The notes under the pieces are model-generated. The model had not been told where the DNA came from. It ran no database searches and saw only the letters and a list, made by a program, of their open reading frames with translations. The translations under genes were made by a program, and so were the position numbers. From a virus (lineage: Duplodnaviria > Heunggongvirae > Uroviricota > Caudoviricetes), in IMG/VR virus record IMGVR_UViG_2698536379_000029: DNA of 10,637 nt, one strand, 5' to 3'. Shown here piece after piece: positions 1,184 through 10,637 of this stretch. How positions within the stretch are numbered: the first letter of the stretch is position 1; every line of letters begins with the position of its first letter.

Positions 1184-1666
1184 ATGGAAGAACTTCACTT
1201 TGTTTACATCAATGCAAATGGTCGTATCGGTGTTCACTCAATACAGAGCATCAGTTATAGCGAAAATCACATACAGGGCATTTGTAAGAACACCGATCGA
1301 ATAAAAACCTTCCGAAAAGACCGCATTCTTAAACAATACGATTCACAAGAACAAGCCATTCAGGAATGCGCGTCATTCCTCCCCGAAAACTACTCACATC
1401 TCACTAAGCAGTCAGGTCCGAAAAAAAATACATTCGATGTGTGTTTCACCGGATTTAAGAAAGCAGATAAAGAAAGGTTGGTTGATAAGGCGAATGAACA
1501 AGGATTAACGGTAAGAACATCTGTAACCCAAAACCTTCAGATGCTCTGTTGCGGTTACAATGCAGGCCCATCAAAAGTATCGGCAGCCAGGATGAAAGGC
1601 ACTATCATCATAGATGAGCCTGGCTTTATACATTTTCTTGAAACGGGTGAGATCCCAGATGAATAA
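1184..1666 (+). CDS. Hypothetical two-domain protein: N-terminal WYL-like domain plus C-terminal BRCT domain (160 aa); probable prophage cargo (moron)
   Basis: ATG 1184 preceded by AAAGAGG (1171-1177); TAA at 1664-1666. N-terminal motif ...HIQGICKNTDRIKTFRKDRI resembles the WYL signature (R-x-FR-x-DRI); C-terminal ...VCFTGFKKADKERLVDKANEQGLTVRTSVTQNLQMLCCGYNAGPSKVSAARMKGTIIIDEPGFIHFL resembles the BRCT domain of NAD-dependent DNA ligase. Visibly AT-rich relative to the flanks. Domain calls are from motif recognition, not a search. Confidence 0.7.
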   Translation: MEELHFVYINANGRIGVHSIQSISYSENHIQGICKNTDRIKTFRKDRILKQYDSQEQAIQECASFLPENYSHLTKQSGPKKNTFDVCFTGFKKADKERLVDKANEQGLTVRTSVTQNLQMLCCGYNAGPSKVSAARMKGTIIIDEPGFIHFLETGEIPDE

Positions 1667-1667
1667 A

Positions 1668-1694
1668 AACCTGCCGTAGCAGGTTCTCTTTCTT
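1668..1694. terminator. Bidirectional rho-independent terminator between the convergent WYL-BRCT ORF and ogr
   Basis: AACCTGC-CGTA-GCAGGTT hairpin (1668-1685) flanked by TTCTCTTTCTT on the plus strand and by a T-rich run on the minus strand. Confidence 0.5.
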
Positions 1695-1911
1695 AAAAAT
1701 TCATATGGCCCTGACCACCTGGCAATGGATGTGGAGGGGCTGTGGCAATCACTGCAGGTGTCACAATAAACCGGACCACTGTTTCATGGGTAACAAAAGT
1801 GCTCCCGCAGTTAATATTTTGGCACTGGCAGTAACGCTCTTTGGTGCTTTCTGTTACTTGAAAACTGCTCCTTGTGTGCGCCGCATGACCACACTTTGGA
1901 CAATTCATCAT
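1693..1911 (-). CDS. ogr: P2 Ogr-family late-gene transcriptional activator (zinc-finger), 72 aa
   Basis: MMNCPKCGHAAHTRSSFQVTESTKERYCQCQNINCGSTF... has the Ogr/Delta C-x2-C...C-x4-C zinc-binding pattern and aligns with P2 Ogr as I recall it; sits directly downstream of gene D as in P2. The track's longer ORF (to 1956) starts at GTG and adds a non-homologous extension, so I chose the ATG at 1911. Confidence 0.85.
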   Translation of the reverse strand: MMNCPKCGHAAHTRSSFQVTESTKERYCQCQNINCGSTFVTHETVVRFIVTPAVIATAPPHPLPGGQGHMNF

Positions 1912-1979
1912 ATCCAGATCCCTACCTTTGCTATCAGAATCATTGCAATGATACACAAAATATCAATATTGAGAACCAT

Positions 1980-3080
1980 TTATTCCATTTCAAGATCACC
2001 AATTTTCACTTCAAGTTCAATACTGGTCGTAAAACCGTTATCCGGGCTGACGGTATGTGTCAGAGTCGTAATGGTCCATTCCGCATCATCTATTGGCTGT
2101 TTAAAGCCACTGACCTTCACAGGCATTTCCGTGTAGAGATCTGCCCGACCTTCCGCCAGTTGTAGCGAGAATGACGCAACACCGCGTTGCAGGCGTTCCC
2201 ACTGCATTTTCGCCGCTCGTTCGGCGTTGCTCCGGTTGGCATAAGTGCGATTAAGTACCAGCACGTTTTCATCCGTCCCCACCAGATAATCGCCCTGCTT
2301 CGCTTCCGGCTCTTTCTTCTGCTTCTTAGTTCTGCGCTTACGCTTCACCGTGGTGCTTTCTTTCTTCGCGGGTTCGCGGGTATGCAACCAGCTGGCAATG
2401 ACGCCCGTATAGGCTCCGCGATCTGCCAGGGTAAAGCGGTGACTGTCGCCGTCCTTACGCGTGATAGTGATCACCGGCAGTGGTTTACCGCTGGCGCTTT
2501 TGCCCTGTCCCTGCCGGATGAATAACAGATTGCCATTTTTCACCGATGCAATAGCACCGTACTGGCGCGCCAGTCGCATCAGAAAACTGCCGTCACTCTC
2601 ATTGGTCTGGTCTATATGTTCCACGGGTTTATCTGACAGGTCTTTACCCAATGCCATCTTCAGTTTGTGCCGTGCAGCTATTTCCTTCACCACTTCCCCA
2701 ACGGTGGTCTTGTGCCACGACTTTTCACGGCGGGTATTCAGCGTTTCACGAAAATCAGCACTTCGCGCCCGGATAGTCAGGCGGTCCGGTGCGCCAGTGT
2801 GTTCAATCTCGTCCACCGTGAATGCCCCTTTCGGGAAAAGCGGCTGCCCCTTCCAGCCCAGCGCCAGCGTAATAACCGCACCACGGCGCGGCAGCACGAT
2901 TTTTCCGTCGGCGTCGTCCAGCTCCAGATCAAGCTGGTCTGCTTCAAAGCCCCGATTGTCCGTCAGCGTCAAACTCATCAGGCGGTTATCCAGCACAGTG
3001 GTGATATCCCTGCCCTCAATACTGATGCTGAATGCGGGAGTTTTGTTGCCTTTGTTAAGCAGTTCAGAGCTGAAATTCAC
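1980..3080 (-). CDS. D: P2 gpD-like tail protein (late control gene D family), 366 aa
   Basis: Position immediately downstream of U with ATGA start/stop overlap at 3077-3080; size and sequence consistent with P2 gpD. Confidence 0.85.
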   Translation of the reverse strand: MNFSSELLNKGNKTPAFSISIEGRDITTVLDNRLMSLTLTDNRGFEADQLDLELDDADGKIVLPRRGAVITLALGWKGQPLFPKGAFTVDEIEHTGAPDRLTIRARSADFRETLNTRREKSWHKTTVGEVVKEIAARHKLKMALGKDLSDKPVEHIDQTNESDGSFLMRLARQYGAIASVKNGNLLFIRQGQGKSASGKPLPVITITRKDGDSHRFTLADRGAYTGVIASWLHTREPAKKESTTVKRKRRTKKQKKEPEAKQGDYLVGTDENVLVLNRTYANRSNAERAAKMQWERLQRGVASFSLQLAEGRADLYTEMPVKVSGFKQPIDDAEWTITTLTHTVSPDNGFTTSIELEVKIGDLEME

Positions 3081-3562: not shown

Positions 3563-6500
3563 GCGTCGTATCCCCCCTGATCGCTGTAGTTACTCCTGGC
3601 TTTTGCCTTCAGCCTGCGTTCACGTTCATCAAGCTGGCGTGCCACCTCCCGCGCAATATCCTGCGCACTTTGTCCTGGCTGCGTCTGGATGATGATCTGC
3701 GTCGGTGCCTCAATCCGTTGAGCGGGCGGCACAGTGGCTGCACGACTCACCATCGCTTCGCCGCCTTTCGCGGGAAGTGCCAAAGGATGTAACGGCGGAA
3801 GCTCTGCAGGCGCGGCAGCAACGCCCATCATTCCGGCAACAACGGCAGCCAGTGCAGCTGTATTTCTCCGACTGGTCACGTTTGCCGGACCGTTGACAAT
3901 TTCAGGCCCGTTTTCACCGACAATGCCGAACTGCCCGCGCGGGATATAGCCGCCGCTGTCATACATCCCCGCAAAGCCATATCCCCATGACGGAAAACCA
4001 CCCGATGGCATCATCACTTTACCGTCTGCATTCACCGTCGCAGGTTGCTGACGCGTCACGCTTTCCGGCAGTTTCGCCTTTGCAGCCTCTTTACTGACAA
4101 TACCGAGTTTCTCCAGCAACCAGGAAACGCCGGATTTCAGGGAGTCCAACGGATGCATGACCATATTCAGCCCTTCCGCCAGTGCCTCCCCGAATCGTCG
4201 CCCCATTGCCGCTGCGCTCTGCAGTTCGGCAGAGGTCGACTTAACAGGCGTCAGCAGATCAGTAAACCAGCCCCACAACGCCTGTACTTTGTCGCCAATC
4301 CACTGGAACACGGGCTTAAGCGGTTCGAATGCAGCACTGATGGGACCTGCCGCCGCTTTGAATCCTTCCACCACGCCACCGAGAAATGCGGTGATGGGTT
4401 GCCAGTATTTCCAGACAACCAGCGCCACGCCCGCCAGTGCAGTAACCACAAGACCTATCGGACTGAGCAGAGCACCTAACAGACCAGATACGGCATACAG
4501 GGCAACGCGCAGCATCGCCAGCGGACCGGATGCCAGCACACGCAGCACCGCGCCTGCGGCAGCCAGTCCACCGCGTAGTGCTGCCAGTGGATTCATAAAC
4601 ATCACAGCAACCGCACGTAAACCGGATAATCCAGACCGCAACAGTGCAACCGGCACACCTGCTACAGTTTTCAGGACATTCCCCGTCAGTGATGCGGTGC
4701 GGCGCAAAGACGACAACGGCGCAGTAAGTAAACCCGCTGCGTTGCCCGATGAAGCAAGCCCGCGTCGCAGCAGTGCCAGTGGAGCGCCAGCTAACCAGGA
4801 CAACGCGCTGCTGGTTCGTGTTACTGCTGCCGTAACGGAAGGTAACGTTTTGATACCCAGCACAGAGAATCCCAGACGGATGACTGCCAGCGGCCCCAGC
4901 ACTGCAGCCAGCGCCACCGCTAAGGTGCCGAGGCCTACGGTAACCGCAGCCACAACAGCCGCTACTTTCATCAGTGTGCCTGTCAGTTCCGGGTTAGCTT
5001 CCACCCAGCGGCGCAACGCCCCCGTGATGCTTTTTACCGTGTACAGAATATCCATCAGCGGCTGGCGCAGCGTTTCGCCCAGGCTGCTGAAGGTGTTCTG
5101 CGCTCCGGTTTTGACCAGCAACCACTGAGCGGAAAGTGAGTCTTTGTTGATGTCGGATTCTTTCTGCATGGAACCGAGCGCATCATTGCCCGCTGTCAGT
5201 TTTAGCTGGCGCTGCAGTTCCGGAAGGTTGTTTGCCAGTTTCGCTGCATCATCACCAAACTCTTTACCAAACAACATGGTCATGGCAGACAGACGCTTGT
5301 CCTGCGGCAGTGCGTTCACCTTCTCCAGCACACGCTGGATAGTTCCCATCGCATCCTTCGTCATCTGCTTTTCAATCACTTCAGGATTGAGTTTCAGCAG
5401 ATTCATCCCTTCAAAGAAACTCTTACTTTGCATGGTGGCAATGGACAATTCACGCACCATCGCGTTTGCTGCACTGGCAGCAACCTCCGGCGCAGCGCCC
5501 AGTGTCAGGAAGGTGGAACCCAGCGCCGCCGCTTTACGATAATCCAGACGATCTGCCACACCGCCCAGGCGTTGCATGACATCAATGATGTCTGACCCTT
5601 TCGACATGGCGTTATCATCCAGATAGTTCAGCGCATCACCGAGCTGTTCAATATTGCGGGTAGGGATTTTGTAGAGCTGGGCGATTTTCCCCAGACTTTC
5701 TGACAGTTCATCCGCTGGCAGCTCAAAGGCTGTTGCCGCCTTTGCTGCCGTGCTGGCGAAGGCCAGCAGGTCACGTTTCTGGTCTTCCCAGCTGTCGTCA
5801 GGATTTGCGACGTTCATGCGCGCACCACCTTCAACCAGTGCGGCAAAGTCCACAGCACCGTTTTCCATCGGCAACTGTTCGCTGGCAGCCTTGATGGCAT
5901 CCTGCATTTCGTAAAAACGCGCAGTGCGGTTGCCATTATCATCACGCAGACCATTGACCTGCTTTGCCACACCTTTCATGGCATCTTCCATGCTGGTATA
6001 GCTTTTTACTGCTGCCATCACTGGCGCACCCATTGCCAGCCCTGCAGCCGTGGTAGTGGCTCCGGCTCCTGCGATGCGATCGCGCACTTCAAGCCGTCTT
6101 GAGTATTGTTCTCTGGCAGCGTTCATCCGTGCCTGTTGTTCACCCAGACGTTTAAGTGCTTTTTGCTGGCCCTCCAGTGCCTGCCTTGTTTCTTCAGCAT
6201 TTTTCTTAAGTTCTCGCTGGGCACTACTGAGTTGTCTGGTATCAATCCCTGATTCTTTAAGTGCCTGACGTTGTCTCTGGACCGCCCCCAACAAGCCGTT
6301 ATAGGTCTGCTGAAGTTCCTGTACTCGTGTTTTGGCCTGACTGAATAACTTTGCCTGCGCGGCGGTTGGCCTGTTAGTGGCAGCAAATTGTGTGGCGAGT
6401 TTTGCCGCCTCTTCGCGGGCTGCGTTCAGGTTGTTGGCTGTTATGGCTAGTTGCGAGCGCGTCTTGCGAAATTCATCAATTCTGCCAGCCTGCTTATTCA

Positions 6501-6636
6501 GTTCTTTGAGGCTGTTTCGGGTATTCTGAATTGCGCCAGCCAGCTCTTTCGAACTGGCCTGTGCAACACGGAATGGGCGGGTGAGTTTGTCAACCGCATT
6601 AAGAATGACCTGCAGCCGCAGGTTGTTATCACTCAT
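3559..6636 (-). CDS. T: Phage tail tape measure protein (P2 gpT-like), 1025 aa
   Basis: Very long ORF directly after the E/E' chaperone pair; coiled-coil-like N-terminal half (Q/A/R/E/L-rich), repetitive Ala/Leu/Gly-rich hydrophobic central region, C-terminal globular region; start ATG overlaps the E+E' stop (ATGAGTGA). Confidence 0.9.
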   Translation of the reverse strand: MSDNNLRLQVILNAVDKLTRPFRVAQASSKELAGAIQNTRNSLKELNKQAGRIDEFRKTRSQLAITANNLNAAREEAAKLATQFAATNRPTAAQAKLFSQAKTRVQELQQTYNGLLGAVQRQRQALKESGIDTRQLSSAQRELKKNAEETRQALEGQQKALKRLGEQQARMNAAREQYSRRLEVRDRIAGAGATTTAAGLAMGAPVMAAVKSYTSMEDAMKGVAKQVNGLRDDNGNRTARFYEMQDAIKAASEQLPMENGAVDFAALVEGGARMNVANPDDSWEDQKRDLLAFASTAAKAATAFELPADELSESLGKIAQLYKIPTRNIEQLGDALNYLDDNAMSKGSDIIDVMQRLGGVADRLDYRKAAALGSTFLTLGAAPEVAASAANAMVRELSIATMQSKSFFEGMNLLKLNPEVIEKQMTKDAMGTIQRVLEKVNALPQDKRLSAMTMLFGKEFGDDAAKLANNLPELQRQLKLTAGNDALGSMQKESDINKDSLSAQWLLVKTGAQNTFSSLGETLRQPLMDILYTVKSITGALRRWVEANPELTGTLMKVAAVVAAVTVGLGTLAVALAAVLGPLAVIRLGFSVLGIKTLPSVTAAVTRTSSALSWLAGAPLALLRRGLASSGNAAGLLTAPLSSLRRTASLTGNVLKTVAGVPVALLRSGLSGLRAVAVMFMNPLAALRGGLAAAGAVLRVLASGPLAMLRVALYAVSGLLGALLSPIGLVVTALAGVALVVWKYWQPITAFLGGVVEGFKAAAGPISAAFEPLKPVFQWIGDKVQALWGWFTDLLTPVKSTSAELQSAAAMGRRFGEALAEGLNMVMHPLDSLKSGVSWLLEKLGIVSKEAAKAKLPESVTRQQPATVNADGKVMMPSGGFPSWGYGFAGMYDSGGYIPRGQFGIVGENGPEIVNGPANVTSRRNTAALAAVVAGMMGVAAAPAELPPLHPLALPAKGGEAMVSRAATVPPAQRIEAPTQIIIQTQPGQSAQDIAREVARQLDERERRLKAKARSNYSDQGGYDA

Positions 6637-7065
6637 CGTTGGCCCCGCTTCTCTGAATCGCTTTATACCGCCATTCCAGCACTTCGGTCAGCGGCATAAC
6701 GTCAGTAACGGATGGCGGCCAGTGAAAGATGGTGGCGATATCAGCCACCAGATCGTCAACCGTCAGGCTGTCGGTAAACCGGCAAGCACCGACTTCTTCA
6801 ACAAAAAAGTGACAACCTCAACCGACATGGCAGTGAGATCTGCCGGGTCCATCTCTGCAATTTCCTGTGCAGTCAGTGCCGGACTGGAGATACGGGGGAT
6901 CACGGTCATCATCGCGTTCACATCCATATCCATAATGGCCTGCAGGCGTGTACCGCGCAGCGCACCGGACTGCGGTTTACGCAGCACAATTTCGGTGATT
7001 TCTGTTTTACCGCGCTTGATGGGGGTATCCAGTTGAATAGTCTTTTCAGTCTGCTTATCGCTCAT
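6629..7065 (-). CDS. E': Tail assembly chaperone gpE+E' made by programmed -1 ribosomal frameshift (about 144 aa)
   Basis: I checked codon by codon that the -1 frame is open from the slippery site (6802-6808) down to a TGA at 6629-6631, which overlaps the T start codon; this mirrors the P2 E/E+E' and lambda G/GT arrangement. Confidence 0.65.
6763..7065 (-). CDS. E: Tail assembly chaperone gpE (zero-frame product), 100 aa
   Basis: Small ORF between FII and T; its 3' end contains the slippery heptamer T TTT TTG (..VTFLLKK..). Confidence 0.8.
   Translation of the reverse strand: MSDKQTEKTIQLDTPIKRGKTEITEIVLRKPQSGALRGTRLQAIMDMDVNAMMTVIPRISSPALTAQEIAEMDPADLTAMSVEVVTFLLKKSVLAGLPTA
6802..6808 (-). 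other. -1 programmed frameshift slippery heptamer TTTTTTG (minus strand)
   Basis: Plus-strand CAAAAAA at 6802-6808 is minus-strand T TTT TTG in the gpE zero frame; the -1 frame downstream is open for 57 codons. Confidence 0.65.
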
Positions 7066-7644: not shown

Positions 7645-8817
7645 TTACGCGCTGACCTGGCTGGCGAAATTCACCAGGTACTGATCGGTGATGCGCTGGC
7701 GCAGCATCAGATTTTCAAGTGGCGGCACTGGCGTGTAGTCATAGTCGATGGTGAGTTTTCCGGCTTTCAGCGTGTCTTTGTCGTTCACCGACTCATCCAG
7801 CCAGCAATCACCACCAATGAGATAGCCCTGACTGACCAGGCTGCGTATTTTGGCGCGGATACCTTCGATAATGTCGCGGGCCAGCGACGGGTTAAGCGGT
7901 TTATCCACCGCCCACATGTGTGCTTCTGCCATTGTGTCCGTCAGCACCTGCGCCGTGCGGGTGTAGTTTTCGAAGGCAAAAAGCGGATCATCGCTCAGAC
8001 AGCGGGAACCCCAGAAGCGGAAACCGTCTTTACGCACAAGCGTGGTGACGTCGTTCTGGTTCAGCAGACCTGCATCGGTTGCCGGGTCCTGCAGATCCCA
8101 GAACACATCTGCAGAAATTCCGGTGACACCGTTCACGCCCACGTTGGACAGGCTTTTGTGCCACCCGGTCTGCTCATCAATTTTGGCACGCAGACCAAGT
8201 GCACGGGCGGTGGCATATGCCGTTGCTTCGGCATTCAGCACCGTGTCCCAGCCAGTAAAGTCGGGCCAGATCAGCATTCCTTCGCGCTGGCTGAAGTTTT
8301 CACGGTAAGTGATCGCCTCCTGTACCGTCTTGCAGCCATACGCTGACAGGTAAGCAAACCCACGCAGGCTTTGCGCCACGCTCAGCAACTCAGTCGCAAC
8401 GGCTTTGTTATCGTGACCTGGCACGCCGAGAATGCGCGGTTTAACGCCGAGCTGTGACTGGGCAGATAACAGAGCTTTCATGCCTGTTTTTTTACCTTCA
8501 GCAGTCACTGCGCCGATGATATTGGTCGTGGTTTCTTCTTCCGTTTCACCCTGCGGCACACGCACAACAACGGTCACGGGTTTTGCCTGGTCAGCGATGG
8601 CATCCAGCGAACGGGCCAGCGTGCCGGACTCACCCGCTTTACCGCTGGCAGTCAGCACATCAGTGATCAGCACAGGTTTGTTAAGAGGAAACATTTTTGC
8701 ATCGGCATCATCGCCCGTGCAGACCATGCCCACGATGGCGGTGCTCACCGTGGTAATGGATCGGGTGCCTTCGTTGACTTCAACAACGCGCACCCCGTGG
8801 TGGTAATCCTGAGCCAT
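7645..8817 (-). CDS. FI: Contractile tail sheath protein (P2 gpFI-like), 390 aa
   Basis: Length and sequence characteristic of Myoviridae sheath protein; strong SD (AGGAGG) 6-11 nt upstream of ATG 8817; first gene of the FI-FII-E-T-U-D operon. Confidence 0.9.
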
Positions 8818-8893
8818 AGTGGCGAACCTCCTGATTGGATTAGGCTTCGCCCTATGTTGAAGTGATTGTGCCTGACAAACAGCTAAGCGCAGT

Positions 8894-8911
8894 TGTACCG
8901 TTATTCACACA
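8894..8911 (-). promoter_or_regulatory. Candidate Ogr-dependent late promoter element (TGT-N12-ACA dyad) for the FI operon
   Basis: TGT ACCGTTATTCAC ACA at 8894-8911, centred about 85 bp upstream of the FI ATG, compatible with the P2 late-promoter dyad centred near -55 plus a roughly 30-nt leader; no clear -10 identified. Confidence 0.35.
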
Positions 8912-8921
8912 AAATGACGGT

Positions 8922-9526
8922 ATTTGTCTACTTGCAGGGATAATCAAAATAATGCTGATTCAGGGGGATTCATTACTCTTATTTGCCGGAAATTTTCTAT
9001 AAATTGTGGAAACACCCACATCAAAAATCAGTGCAATACGCTGTCTTGATTCTCCGGCCTCGAGTAAACGCCCAATCTGTGCCCACTGTTCGGTGGTCAA
9101 CTTAGGACGGCGTCCACCTACTCTGCCTTTGGCACGAGCTGCAGCCAGCCCTGCCCTGGTACGTTCAACTATCAGTTCGCGTTCCATTTCAGCCAGGGCA
9201 CCCATGACATGAAAAAAGAAACGGCCCATTGGGGTACTGGTATCAATACTGTCAGTCAGGCTTCGGAAATTCACACCACGCTGGCGCAACTCCTCTATCA
9301 GCGTAACAAGATGCCGCATACTGCGCCCCAACCTGTCCAGCTTCCAGACAACCAGCGTGTCTCCTGCCGATAGTGTCCTGAGCAGCTTTTTCAGCCCCGG
9401 TCTGTCGGACTTAGTGCCACTGATTTTATCCTCAAAAATCCGCTCACATCCCGCGCAGTTCAGTGCATTACGTTGCAAATCGGTGTTCTGGTCATTTGTT
9501 GACACGCGTACATAGCCAATAAGCAT
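8922..9526. repeat. Direct repeat copy A (at least 605 bp, period 1111 bp)
   Basis: 8922..9526 is identical base for base to 10033..10637 in my reading; identity starts one base after a t/a mismatch at 8921/10032. Confidence 0.9.
8960..9526 (-). CDS. Site-specific DNA invertase, serine recombinase of the Pin/Gin/Cin/Hin family, 188 aa (copy 1)
   Basis: MLIGYVRVSTNDQNTDLQRNAL... with the catalytic Ser in the YVRVST motif and a C-terminal HTH (GVSTIYRKFPA); strongly resembles E. coli Pin / Mu Gin as I recall them. Two in-frame ATGs lie upstream (9532 and 9526); I chose 9526 by family alignment. Confidence 0.9.
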   Translation of the reverse strand: MLIGYVRVSTNDQNTDLQRNALNCAGCERIFEDKISGTKSDRPGLKKLLRTLSAGDTLVVWKLDRLGRSMRHLVTLIEELRQRGVNFRSLTDSIDTSTPMGRFFFHVMGALAEMERELIVERTRAGLAAARAKGRVGGRRPKLTTEQWAQIGRLLEAGESRQRIALIFDVGVSTIYRKFPANKSNESP

Positions 9527-9553
9527 GATCATCCCCCTGAATAAAAACCGGAG

Positions 9554-9952
9554 ATGATGCCAGTTAGCCGTTATCTCTGCATTTTCATAAACGTTGGTTT
9601 GGGAGAAGCGGCGAAAAGGGATGTGGGCACAGGAGATAATCAGATACCGGATATGGGAGCATTCGCTTCTGGTTCGGGATGGTTCAGGCTACCAGGTGGA
9701 TATATTGTTCAGTTTGGCACTTTTGCAGGAAACACGACCCGCTTTATCAGTGGACACTTCCCTATACCATTCCCTAATCAGCCGATGGTTTCAGTCAGTG
9801 TTATGTCTGATGCCGTTCAGTCAGACCCGTCGATTCCTGCCCCGCAGGTTTTGTCTGTAAATTTTGAACATATCAGTAATTCAGCGTGGCGTGTGGCAAC
9901 CAGTGATATCTCACAGCAATACAGATTCAGTTATATTTCGATAGGACGGTAG
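9554..9952 (+). CDS. Promoterless tail-fibre C-terminal (receptor-binding) cassette in silent orientation; true coding part probably begins at the crossover site
   Basis: ORF reads through the crossover site and away from the invertase; contains a tail-fibre-tip-like motif (GWFRLPGGYIVQFG); followed 2 bp later by the ATG of a tail-fibre assembly gene, the Sv'-U' arrangement of Mu/P1 invertible segments. It is on the opposite strand to the late operon, so not expressed as arranged. Confidence 0.45.
   Translation: MMPVSRYLCIFINVGLGEAAKRDVGTGDNQIPDMGAFASGSGWFRLPGGYIVQFGTFAGNTTRFISGHFPIPFPNQPMVSVSVMSDAVQSDPSIPAPQVLSVNFEHISNSAWRVATSDISQQYRFSYISIGR
9583..9608. other. Candidate 26-bp recombination crossover site (hix/gix/cix-like)
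   Basis: TTTTCATAAACG TT GGTTTGGGAGAA: two imperfect inverted 12-bp half-sites around a 2-bp core, fitting the pattern TT-TC--AAAC(C)--GGTTT--GA-AA; about 55 bp upstream of the invertase start, as for gixR-gin and cix-cin. Confidence 0.5.
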
Positions 9953-9954
9953 AA

Positions 9955-10113
9955 ATGCAGAAATATATTTTCAGTGCCGATAAAAATGCGTTTTTCCCTG
10001 TGGAGCTTAAAATCGCTTATCAGGAATCCGGAATTTGTCTACTTGCAGGGATAATCAAAATAATGCTGATTCAGGGGGATTCATTACTCTTATTTGCCGG
10101 AAATTTTCTATAA
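9955..10113 (+). pseudogene. Tail-fibre assembly protein (Tfa/gpG/U-like) 5' fragment, truncated at the duplication junction
   Basis: MQKYIFSADKNAFFPVELKIAYQESG... resembles Tfa N-termini; after codon 26 (position 10032/10033) the frame runs into the repeated invertase-downstream sequence and stops at 10113. Confidence 0.4.
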
Positions 10114-10637
10114 ATTGTGGAAACACCCACATCAAAAATCAGTGCAATACGCTGTCTTGATTCTCCGGCCTCGAGTAAACGCCCAATCTGTGCCCACTGT
10201 TCGGTGGTCAACTTAGGACGGCGTCCACCTACTCTGCCTTTGGCACGAGCTGCAGCCAGCCCTGCCCTGGTACGTTCAACTATCAGTTCGCGTTCCATTT
10301 CAGCCAGGGCACCCATGACATGAAAAAAGAAACGGCCCATTGGGGTACTGGTATCAATACTGTCAGTCAGGCTTCGGAAATTCACACCACGCTGGCGCAA
10401 CTCCTCTATCAGCGTAACAAGATGCCGCATACTGCGCCCCAACCTGTCCAGCTTCCAGACAACCAGCGTGTCTCCTGCCGATAGTGTCCTGAGCAGCTTT
10501 TTCAGCCCCGGTCTGTCGGACTTAGTGCCACTGATTTTATCCTCAAAAATCCGCTCACATCCCGCGCAGTTCAGTGCATTACGTTGCAAATCGGTGTTCT
10601 GGTCATTTGTTGACACGCGTACATAGCCAATAAGCAT
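10033..10637. repeat. Direct repeat copy B (truncated by the window end)
   Basis: See copy A; whether identity continues past 10637 (a full 1111-bp tandem unit) cannot be seen here. Confidence 0.9.
10071..10637 (-). CDS. Site-specific DNA invertase, Pin/Gin/Hin family, 188 aa (copy 2, identical to copy 1)
   Basis: Nucleotide-identical to 8960..9526; its ATG is the last three bases of the window (10635-10637). Confidence 0.85.
   Translation of the reverse strand: MLIGYVRVSTNDQNTDLQRNALNCAGCERIFEDKISGTKSDRPGLKKLLRTLSAGDTLVVWKLDRLGRSMRHLVTLIEELRQRGVNFRSLTDSIDTSTPMGRFFFHVMGALAEMERELIVERTRAGLAAARAKGRVGGRRPKLTTEQWAQIGRLLEAGESRQRIALIFDVGVSTIYRKFPANKSNESP

Follow-up and report, generated by a model that had tools for sequence, protein, structure and literature searches.

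An apparent duplication of a DNA invertase gene at the tail-fibre switch of a P2-like prophage is most probably a scaffolding artefact of a draft genome

The window, that is, the whole stretch of 10,637 bp that was analysed, forms the end of CYAE01000039.1 (34,453 bp), a draft contig of assembly GCA_001277435.1. It begins with smpB (positions 1-483) and, beside it, the tmRNA gene ssrA (698-1060), which encodes the tag ANDENYALAA and is directly followed by a prophage arm. Over its full length, the smpB-ssrA stretch reaches at most 98.6% identity with E. coli genomes. To the left of the invertase gene discussed below, the minus strand carries the P2-type tail genes for sheath, tube, E/E', tape measure, U, D and ogr. 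Given that P2-type tail genes directly follow smpB and ssrA, this part of the window represents one arm of a P2-like prophage for which ssrA of an E. coli-like chromosome served as the integration site.

Several features of this arm were recorded in passing. Between ssrA and ogr, at the edge of the prophage, a 160-aa ORF (1184-1666, plus strand) is matched along its entire length by PHROG 2561 ('DNA ligase', E 2.5e-77). Its BRCT match in Pfam is weak and falls below the cut-off (E 9e-4), and a ligase catalytic domain is missing; it is probably a small BRCT-like cargo gene. A 143-aa ORF at 1705-2136 (plus strand), a publicly called gene, overlaps ogr (1693-1911, minus strand) as well as the end of gene D and has no Pfam hit; it is probably a spurious call. 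At 6629-7065 on the minus strand, two ORFs form a pair of tail assembly chaperones arranged like E/E' of P2: a 100-aa Phage_TAC_7 ORF (6763-7065) and a 39-aa GpE-family ORF (6629-6748) that overlaps the start of the tape-measure gene. This is the arrangement known for the programmed -1 frameshift of P2. Within the tape-measure gene, a patch of about 440 bp (6095-6536) gives no blastn alignment to the related prophage of E. coli GPEC1222, and its flanks align at 96-98% with the same offset; it looks like a mosaic replacement of the same length.

Linked to the tail sheath gene by continuous sequence is a gene for a serine DNA invertase of 188 aa (8960-9526, minus strand). The protein matches the Pfam families Resolvase (E 2.2e-53) and HTH_7 (E 1.4e-15), PHROG 125 'DNA invertase' (E 8.8e-101) and, over residues 1-184, the structure of the Mu invertase Gin (3uj3, E 7.9e-93). 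It thus has the N-terminal resolvase and C-terminal HTH_7 domains of a small serine recombinase and is close to Gin. An in-frame ATG at 9527-9532, two codons (6 nt) upstream of the invertase start, would allow a protein beginning MIMLIGY rather than MLIGY; the shorter form is the one used in public gene calls and at the window end.

Next to the invertase start lies a 26-bp crossover site of the Hin/Gin/Cin/Pin type, TTTTCATAAACG-TT-GGTTTGGGAGAA, at 9582-9607 on the plus strand, where the invertible segment has its invertase-proximal end. The crossover sites tabulated for prophages of E. coli EC958, and their consensus, are similar to it (PMC4134206). The site falls inside an ORF at 9554-9952, and this is as expected, since such sites lie at the joint between the constant and the variable part of a fibre gene. 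As called, this ORF starts upstream of the crossover site, and it is not an independent gene. The part beyond the site (9608-9952, plus strand) is a silent alternative C-terminal cassette of the fibre, here termed Sv', with a gp53-like C-terminal domain (Pfam Gp53-like_C, E 5.3e-9, residues 45-132 of the ORF), and PHROG 2557 and 1396 match the ORF via the C-terminal ends of fibre proteins only. The cassette is followed by the 5' end of the alternative tail-fibre assembly gene U' (9955-10031, plus strand), of which codons 1-25 and two bases of codon 26 are present.

The layout of such a locus can be read from related prophages. In E. coli GPEC1222 (L001; about 98% identical), one strand carries the sheath gene, the invertase gene, a gp53-like fragment and U' (146 aa); a further assembly gene, U, and the complete fibre gene H lie on the other strand, followed by genes I, J, W and V. 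The same gene order is found in Klebsiella phage KP12. The crossover sites of GPEC1222 lie at 6983-7008 (L001 numbering), with one mismatch to the window's site and at the same place, and, inverted and with four mismatches, at 8814-8839 inside gene H. The Sv' cassette has the same position in GPEC1222, and the 5' end of U' matches the intact U' of that strain base for base over the 42 bases displayed up to 10031. The window holds one distinct crossover site, the distal partner lying outside both the window and the contig.

The other arrangement is seen in E. coli MFDS1019527, in which the sheath and invertase genes are followed by a cassette with a Collar domain and by U, after which the other strand carries a further assembly gene of opposite orientation, which by its position is U', and then H. 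GPEC1222 and MFDS1019527, both complete genomes, therefore have opposite segment orientations and one invertase gene each. MFDS1019527 was considered as an exact flipped form of the prophage in the window, with which it has an invertase side at 100% identity and the Collar cassette in common, but it is devoid of the window's gp53-like and U' alleles. GPEC1222 was for this reason taken as the relative that carries both cassettes. More generally, the related prophages for which the annotation was read have a single invertase, and their tail-fibre assembly gene, where annotated, is full-length with 144-146 aa.

What sets the window apart from these relatives is a second invertase ORF, at 10071-10637 on the minus strand, which encodes an identical protein of 188 aa. 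The sequence-only reading of this stretch had reported a perfect direct repeat of at least 605 bp with a period of 1111 bp, and direct comparison within the window reproduces it: 8922-9526 and 10033-10637 are identical base for base (100%), at an offset of 1111, and each copy comprises the complete invertase gene and 38 bp downstream of its stop. Directly before 8922, agreement between the two registers drops to what chance would give (6-17 matches in every 50 bases), and on the other side the 605-bp run is truncated only by the window end. It had been asked whether identity would continue over the whole 1111-bp unit. In the source record the repeat extends to 687 bp and ends there, 8922-9608 being identical to 10033-10719 in window-equivalent coordinates. 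Copy 1 (8922-9608) thus consists of the 38 bp past the invertase stop, the invertase gene, a 55-bp spacer, the crossover site and one further nucleotide, and identity ceases one base past the 26-bp site, at its inner edge. The contig itself stops 196 bp beyond the repeat end, which is 278 bp beyond the window end. A circular or terminal-overlap artefact was also considered, and the window end does not wrap onto the window start.

Past the crossover site the two copies part. Copy 1 continues into the gp53-like cassette, and copy 2 into a cassette with a Phage Tail Collar domain (Pfam E 8e-14), termed Sv, which lies beyond the window. The sequence that begins after the joint (10033-10637 in the window, 837 bp in the record) hence contains the invertase region, the site and this Collar cassette. 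Its terminal part corresponds to reversed gene H of GPEC1222 right after the inverted site (8839 to 8663 in L001), at 94% identity over 177 bp. The repeat therefore ends at a recombination site, and its two copies run into the gp53-like and the Collar cassette, which are the two segment ends of GPEC1222. The 837-bp piece is present in one contiguous stretch in 1066 of the 5426 complete E. coli genomes, with a best identity of 98.9% in MFDS1019527; the same genome is 100% identical to positions 8600-9608 of the window, and this identity stops at the very same base, 9608. An identical outer flank and site with the other segment end attached is what site-specific inversion predicts, and the second piece is most probably the flipped-orientation junction of the same tail-fibre switch. 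Both junctions are present in one record, and both orientations occur among complete genomes.

The joint between the two copies is of a different nature. Window and CYAE01000039.1 are identical at 10,636 of 10,637 positions, and they differ solely at 10032, where the public record gives N and the window A. This N is the only one in the last 10.9 kb of the contig. The joint base is thus not determined sequence, and as 10032 is an N the joint is a scaffold gap that was never sequenced: the real sequence of the first piece ends at 10031, and behind a single N stands a short second piece of 837 bp that runs to the contig's end. Compared with GPEC1222, the sequence is common as far as GGAATCCGG, after which GPEC1222 continues with CGAATGGCCC and the window with ATTTGTCTAC, the latter being the sequence 38 bp beyond the invertase stop. 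Preparation of the window appears to have swapped the N for an A, which conceals the scaffold gap from a reader of the letters alone; what the sequence-only reading met at 10032 was accordingly a gap marker in the guise of a base.

With the joint placed in the middle of a 120-base query, none of the 5426 complete E. coli genomes covered the query to at least 80%, and the exact joint patterns occur neither in the GTDB representative genomes nor in IMG/VR nor in the JGI metagenomes. Inheritance of the joint as a real structure was rejected on account of its absence from these four collections. When both copies were used as query, the full-length matches listed had them mapping onto one single stretch of about 1.43 kb, i.e., one invertase, with one exception, a record carrying an IS26 insertion. 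Each of the two pieces is therefore a natural single-invertase configuration in finished genomes, and it is only their joint that was nowhere found in the collections searched.

The types of gene named in the sequence-only reading, namely, invertase, tail-fibre assembly gene and chimeric ORF, were correct, and the joint is indeed seen in the window inside the 5' end of the assembly gene, where it leaves an open chimeric frame. This 52-aa ORF (9955-10113, plus strand) is composed of the first 26 codons of the tail-fibre assembly gene and 26 unrelated codons, spans the N of the record and has no Pfam family; an exact-protein look-up returned one contig only, CYAE01000039.1 itself. The ORF is a by-product of the join and not a gene. 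Two further accounts of the breakpoint were tried and set aside. Microhomology-mediated duplication is not supported, because only CGG is common to both sides before the mismatch, and the mismatched base is the N. Nor does an internal inverted repeat formed by shared 5' ends of U and U' account for the break at codon 26, as in GPEC1222 only the overlapping 3' ends match. The break at codon 26 of U' would thus be explained only by edge extension of an assembled piece.

Taken together, the duplication is read as a scaffold join rather than as a genomic feature, so that the observation holds for the letters of the window only. The most probable explanation, in which we have high confidence, is that scaffolding of the draft genome created the repeat artificially at a phase-variable tail-fibre locus, the second copy being the same invertase gene as it appears on the flipped orientation. 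The locus is a P2-like prophage beside ssrA with a tail-fibre switch of the Gin/Cin/Pin type, in which the invertase gene adjoins a segment of presumably about 1.8 kb that is bounded by inverted 26-bp crossover sites and would hold two mirror-image cassettes, each with a fibre C-terminus and its assembly chaperone. We infer from the assembly that the culture contained both segment orientations in one prophage, and the reads would in this case support two continuations after the invertase-proximal site, as we propose. The main contig would have been built with the invertase gene, the site, the gp53-like cassette and U', and the other continuation, with the invertase gene, the site and the Collar cassette, would have been kept as a separate piece of 837 bp. 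A read-pair scaffolder may then have placed this piece after the main contig with one N between them.

The arbitrary ends of the two pieces, at 8922 and at codon 26 of U', would fit a read-based extension of the edges, such as GapFiller performs, and as the two sides would have no overlap, the gap would never close. Where such filling finds no overlap, one N remains, a convention that the GapFiller paper does not spell out. A de Bruijn assembler would not normally emit the same 687 bp twice, so that a step of extension or repeat resolution after assembly must be assumed. For the Sanger pipeline, SSPACE and GapFiller are described as greedy programs that are liable to false joins, the joins being N gaps (PMC5320598). 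GapFiller lengthens each of the two edges one base at a time, and closure of a gap requires an overlap of at least 10 nt (PMC3446322). Separate contigs of alternative alleles have been reported as well, namely for the invertible tail-fibre segments of prophages in E. coli EC958 (Forde et al. 2014, PMC4134206).

The strongest of the alternatives accepts that the join is false but derives the 837-bp piece from a second P2-like prophage, with an identical invertase region and with the Collar cassette facing the invertase, which the scaffolder linked via the repeat. The invertase region matches at up to 7-10 places per E. coli genome. The Collar cassette is closer to MFDS1019527 (98.9%, a value for the whole piece), which has neither the gp53-like nor the U' allele of the window, than to GPEC1222 (94%); the latter is the closest relative with both cassettes, and this 94% compares with about 98% in the neighbouring DNA. 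However, a genome has a median of one matching place, GPEC1222 carries both cassette types in one segment, and two prophages would have to be 100% identical over 687 bp that include non-coding DNA. We regard a second prophage as unlikely, though it merits more weight than the two alternatives that take the join as real.

The first of these two is a genuine rearrangement, by which a second, identical cassette of invertase gene and crossover site was inserted at codon 26 of the silent U'. If true, it would yield a switch with two invertases and three sites and with altered inversion dynamics, loosely like the multi-site Min system of p15B. Nothing speaks for it beyond the order of the scaffold itself, but the joint is found in none of the 5426 complete genomes, two independent illegitimate events with zero later divergence would be required, and the points that weigh against a tandem duplication, given below, apply in equal measure. 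Such a rearrangement is very improbable.

The second is a genuine and very recent tandem duplication or amplification of the 1111-bp invertase unit with an ambiguous base call at the joint: tandem duplications with homology-free junctions do occur in bacteria, and the window has 605 bp of perfect identity at a fixed period, but identity ends at 687 bp instead of 1111 bp, a different cassette comes after copy 2, an arrangement that could not arise by simple tandem duplication, the only N in 10.9 kb falls exactly on the joint, the contig stops just past the end of identity, and the joint is found nowhere else in the collections searched, so that we consider this origin very improbable as well. 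The sequence-only reading had left the choice between an assembly artefact and a recent duplication or amplification. The former stands, and the latter falls with the N at the joint, the different continuation of the second copy and the absence of the joint elsewhere. A doubled invertase dosage and an additional crossover site had also been envisaged; these consequences do not follow, since the second copy is not shown to be in the genome.

Such a scaffolding artefact has implications for quality control and not for biology. Displaying an N as an A hides scaffold joins and is bound to generate further false 'perfect duplications' and 'chimeric ORFs', and artefactual duplications in draft assemblies arise repeatedly from the invertible tail-fibre segments of prophages, a warning already given for EC958 (PMC4134206). 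As to the prophage itself, the presence of both junctions suggests that its invertase was active in the sequenced culture, which is a minor and expected result. A tail-fibre switch of the Gin type in a P2-like prophage is already well known.

The closest precedent is that of EC958, an E. coli strain with a prophage that likewise combines a DNA invertase and 26-bp sites with mirror-image cassettes and a fibre gene whose variable 3' end encodes a Collar domain, and in which both orientations were present in the sequenced culture and gave rise to extra contigs; its authors explicitly predicted artefactual duplications of this kind (PMC4134206). The two cases differ in that EC958 was assembled from PacBio reads and the alternative contigs stayed separate from its chromosome, whereas the assembly analysed here is a draft, probably from short reads, in which scaffolding attached the alternative junction to the main contig through a single N. 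The join itself is similar to the false joins of SSPACE and GapFiller (PMC5320598, PMC3446322) in consisting of two pieces with a residual N, no overlap and arbitrary ends. In its architecture the locus corresponds to the G segment of Mu with Gin, the C segment of P1 with Cin and the P segment of e14 with Pin: in all of them the invertase gene is located just outside the segment with its start adjoining a crossover site, this site lies inside the fibre reading frame, and two fibre C-termini and two chaperone genes are arranged as mirror images. In contrast to these systems, the host element here is a P2-like prophage at ssrA, and its cassettes are of the gp53-like and Collar types.
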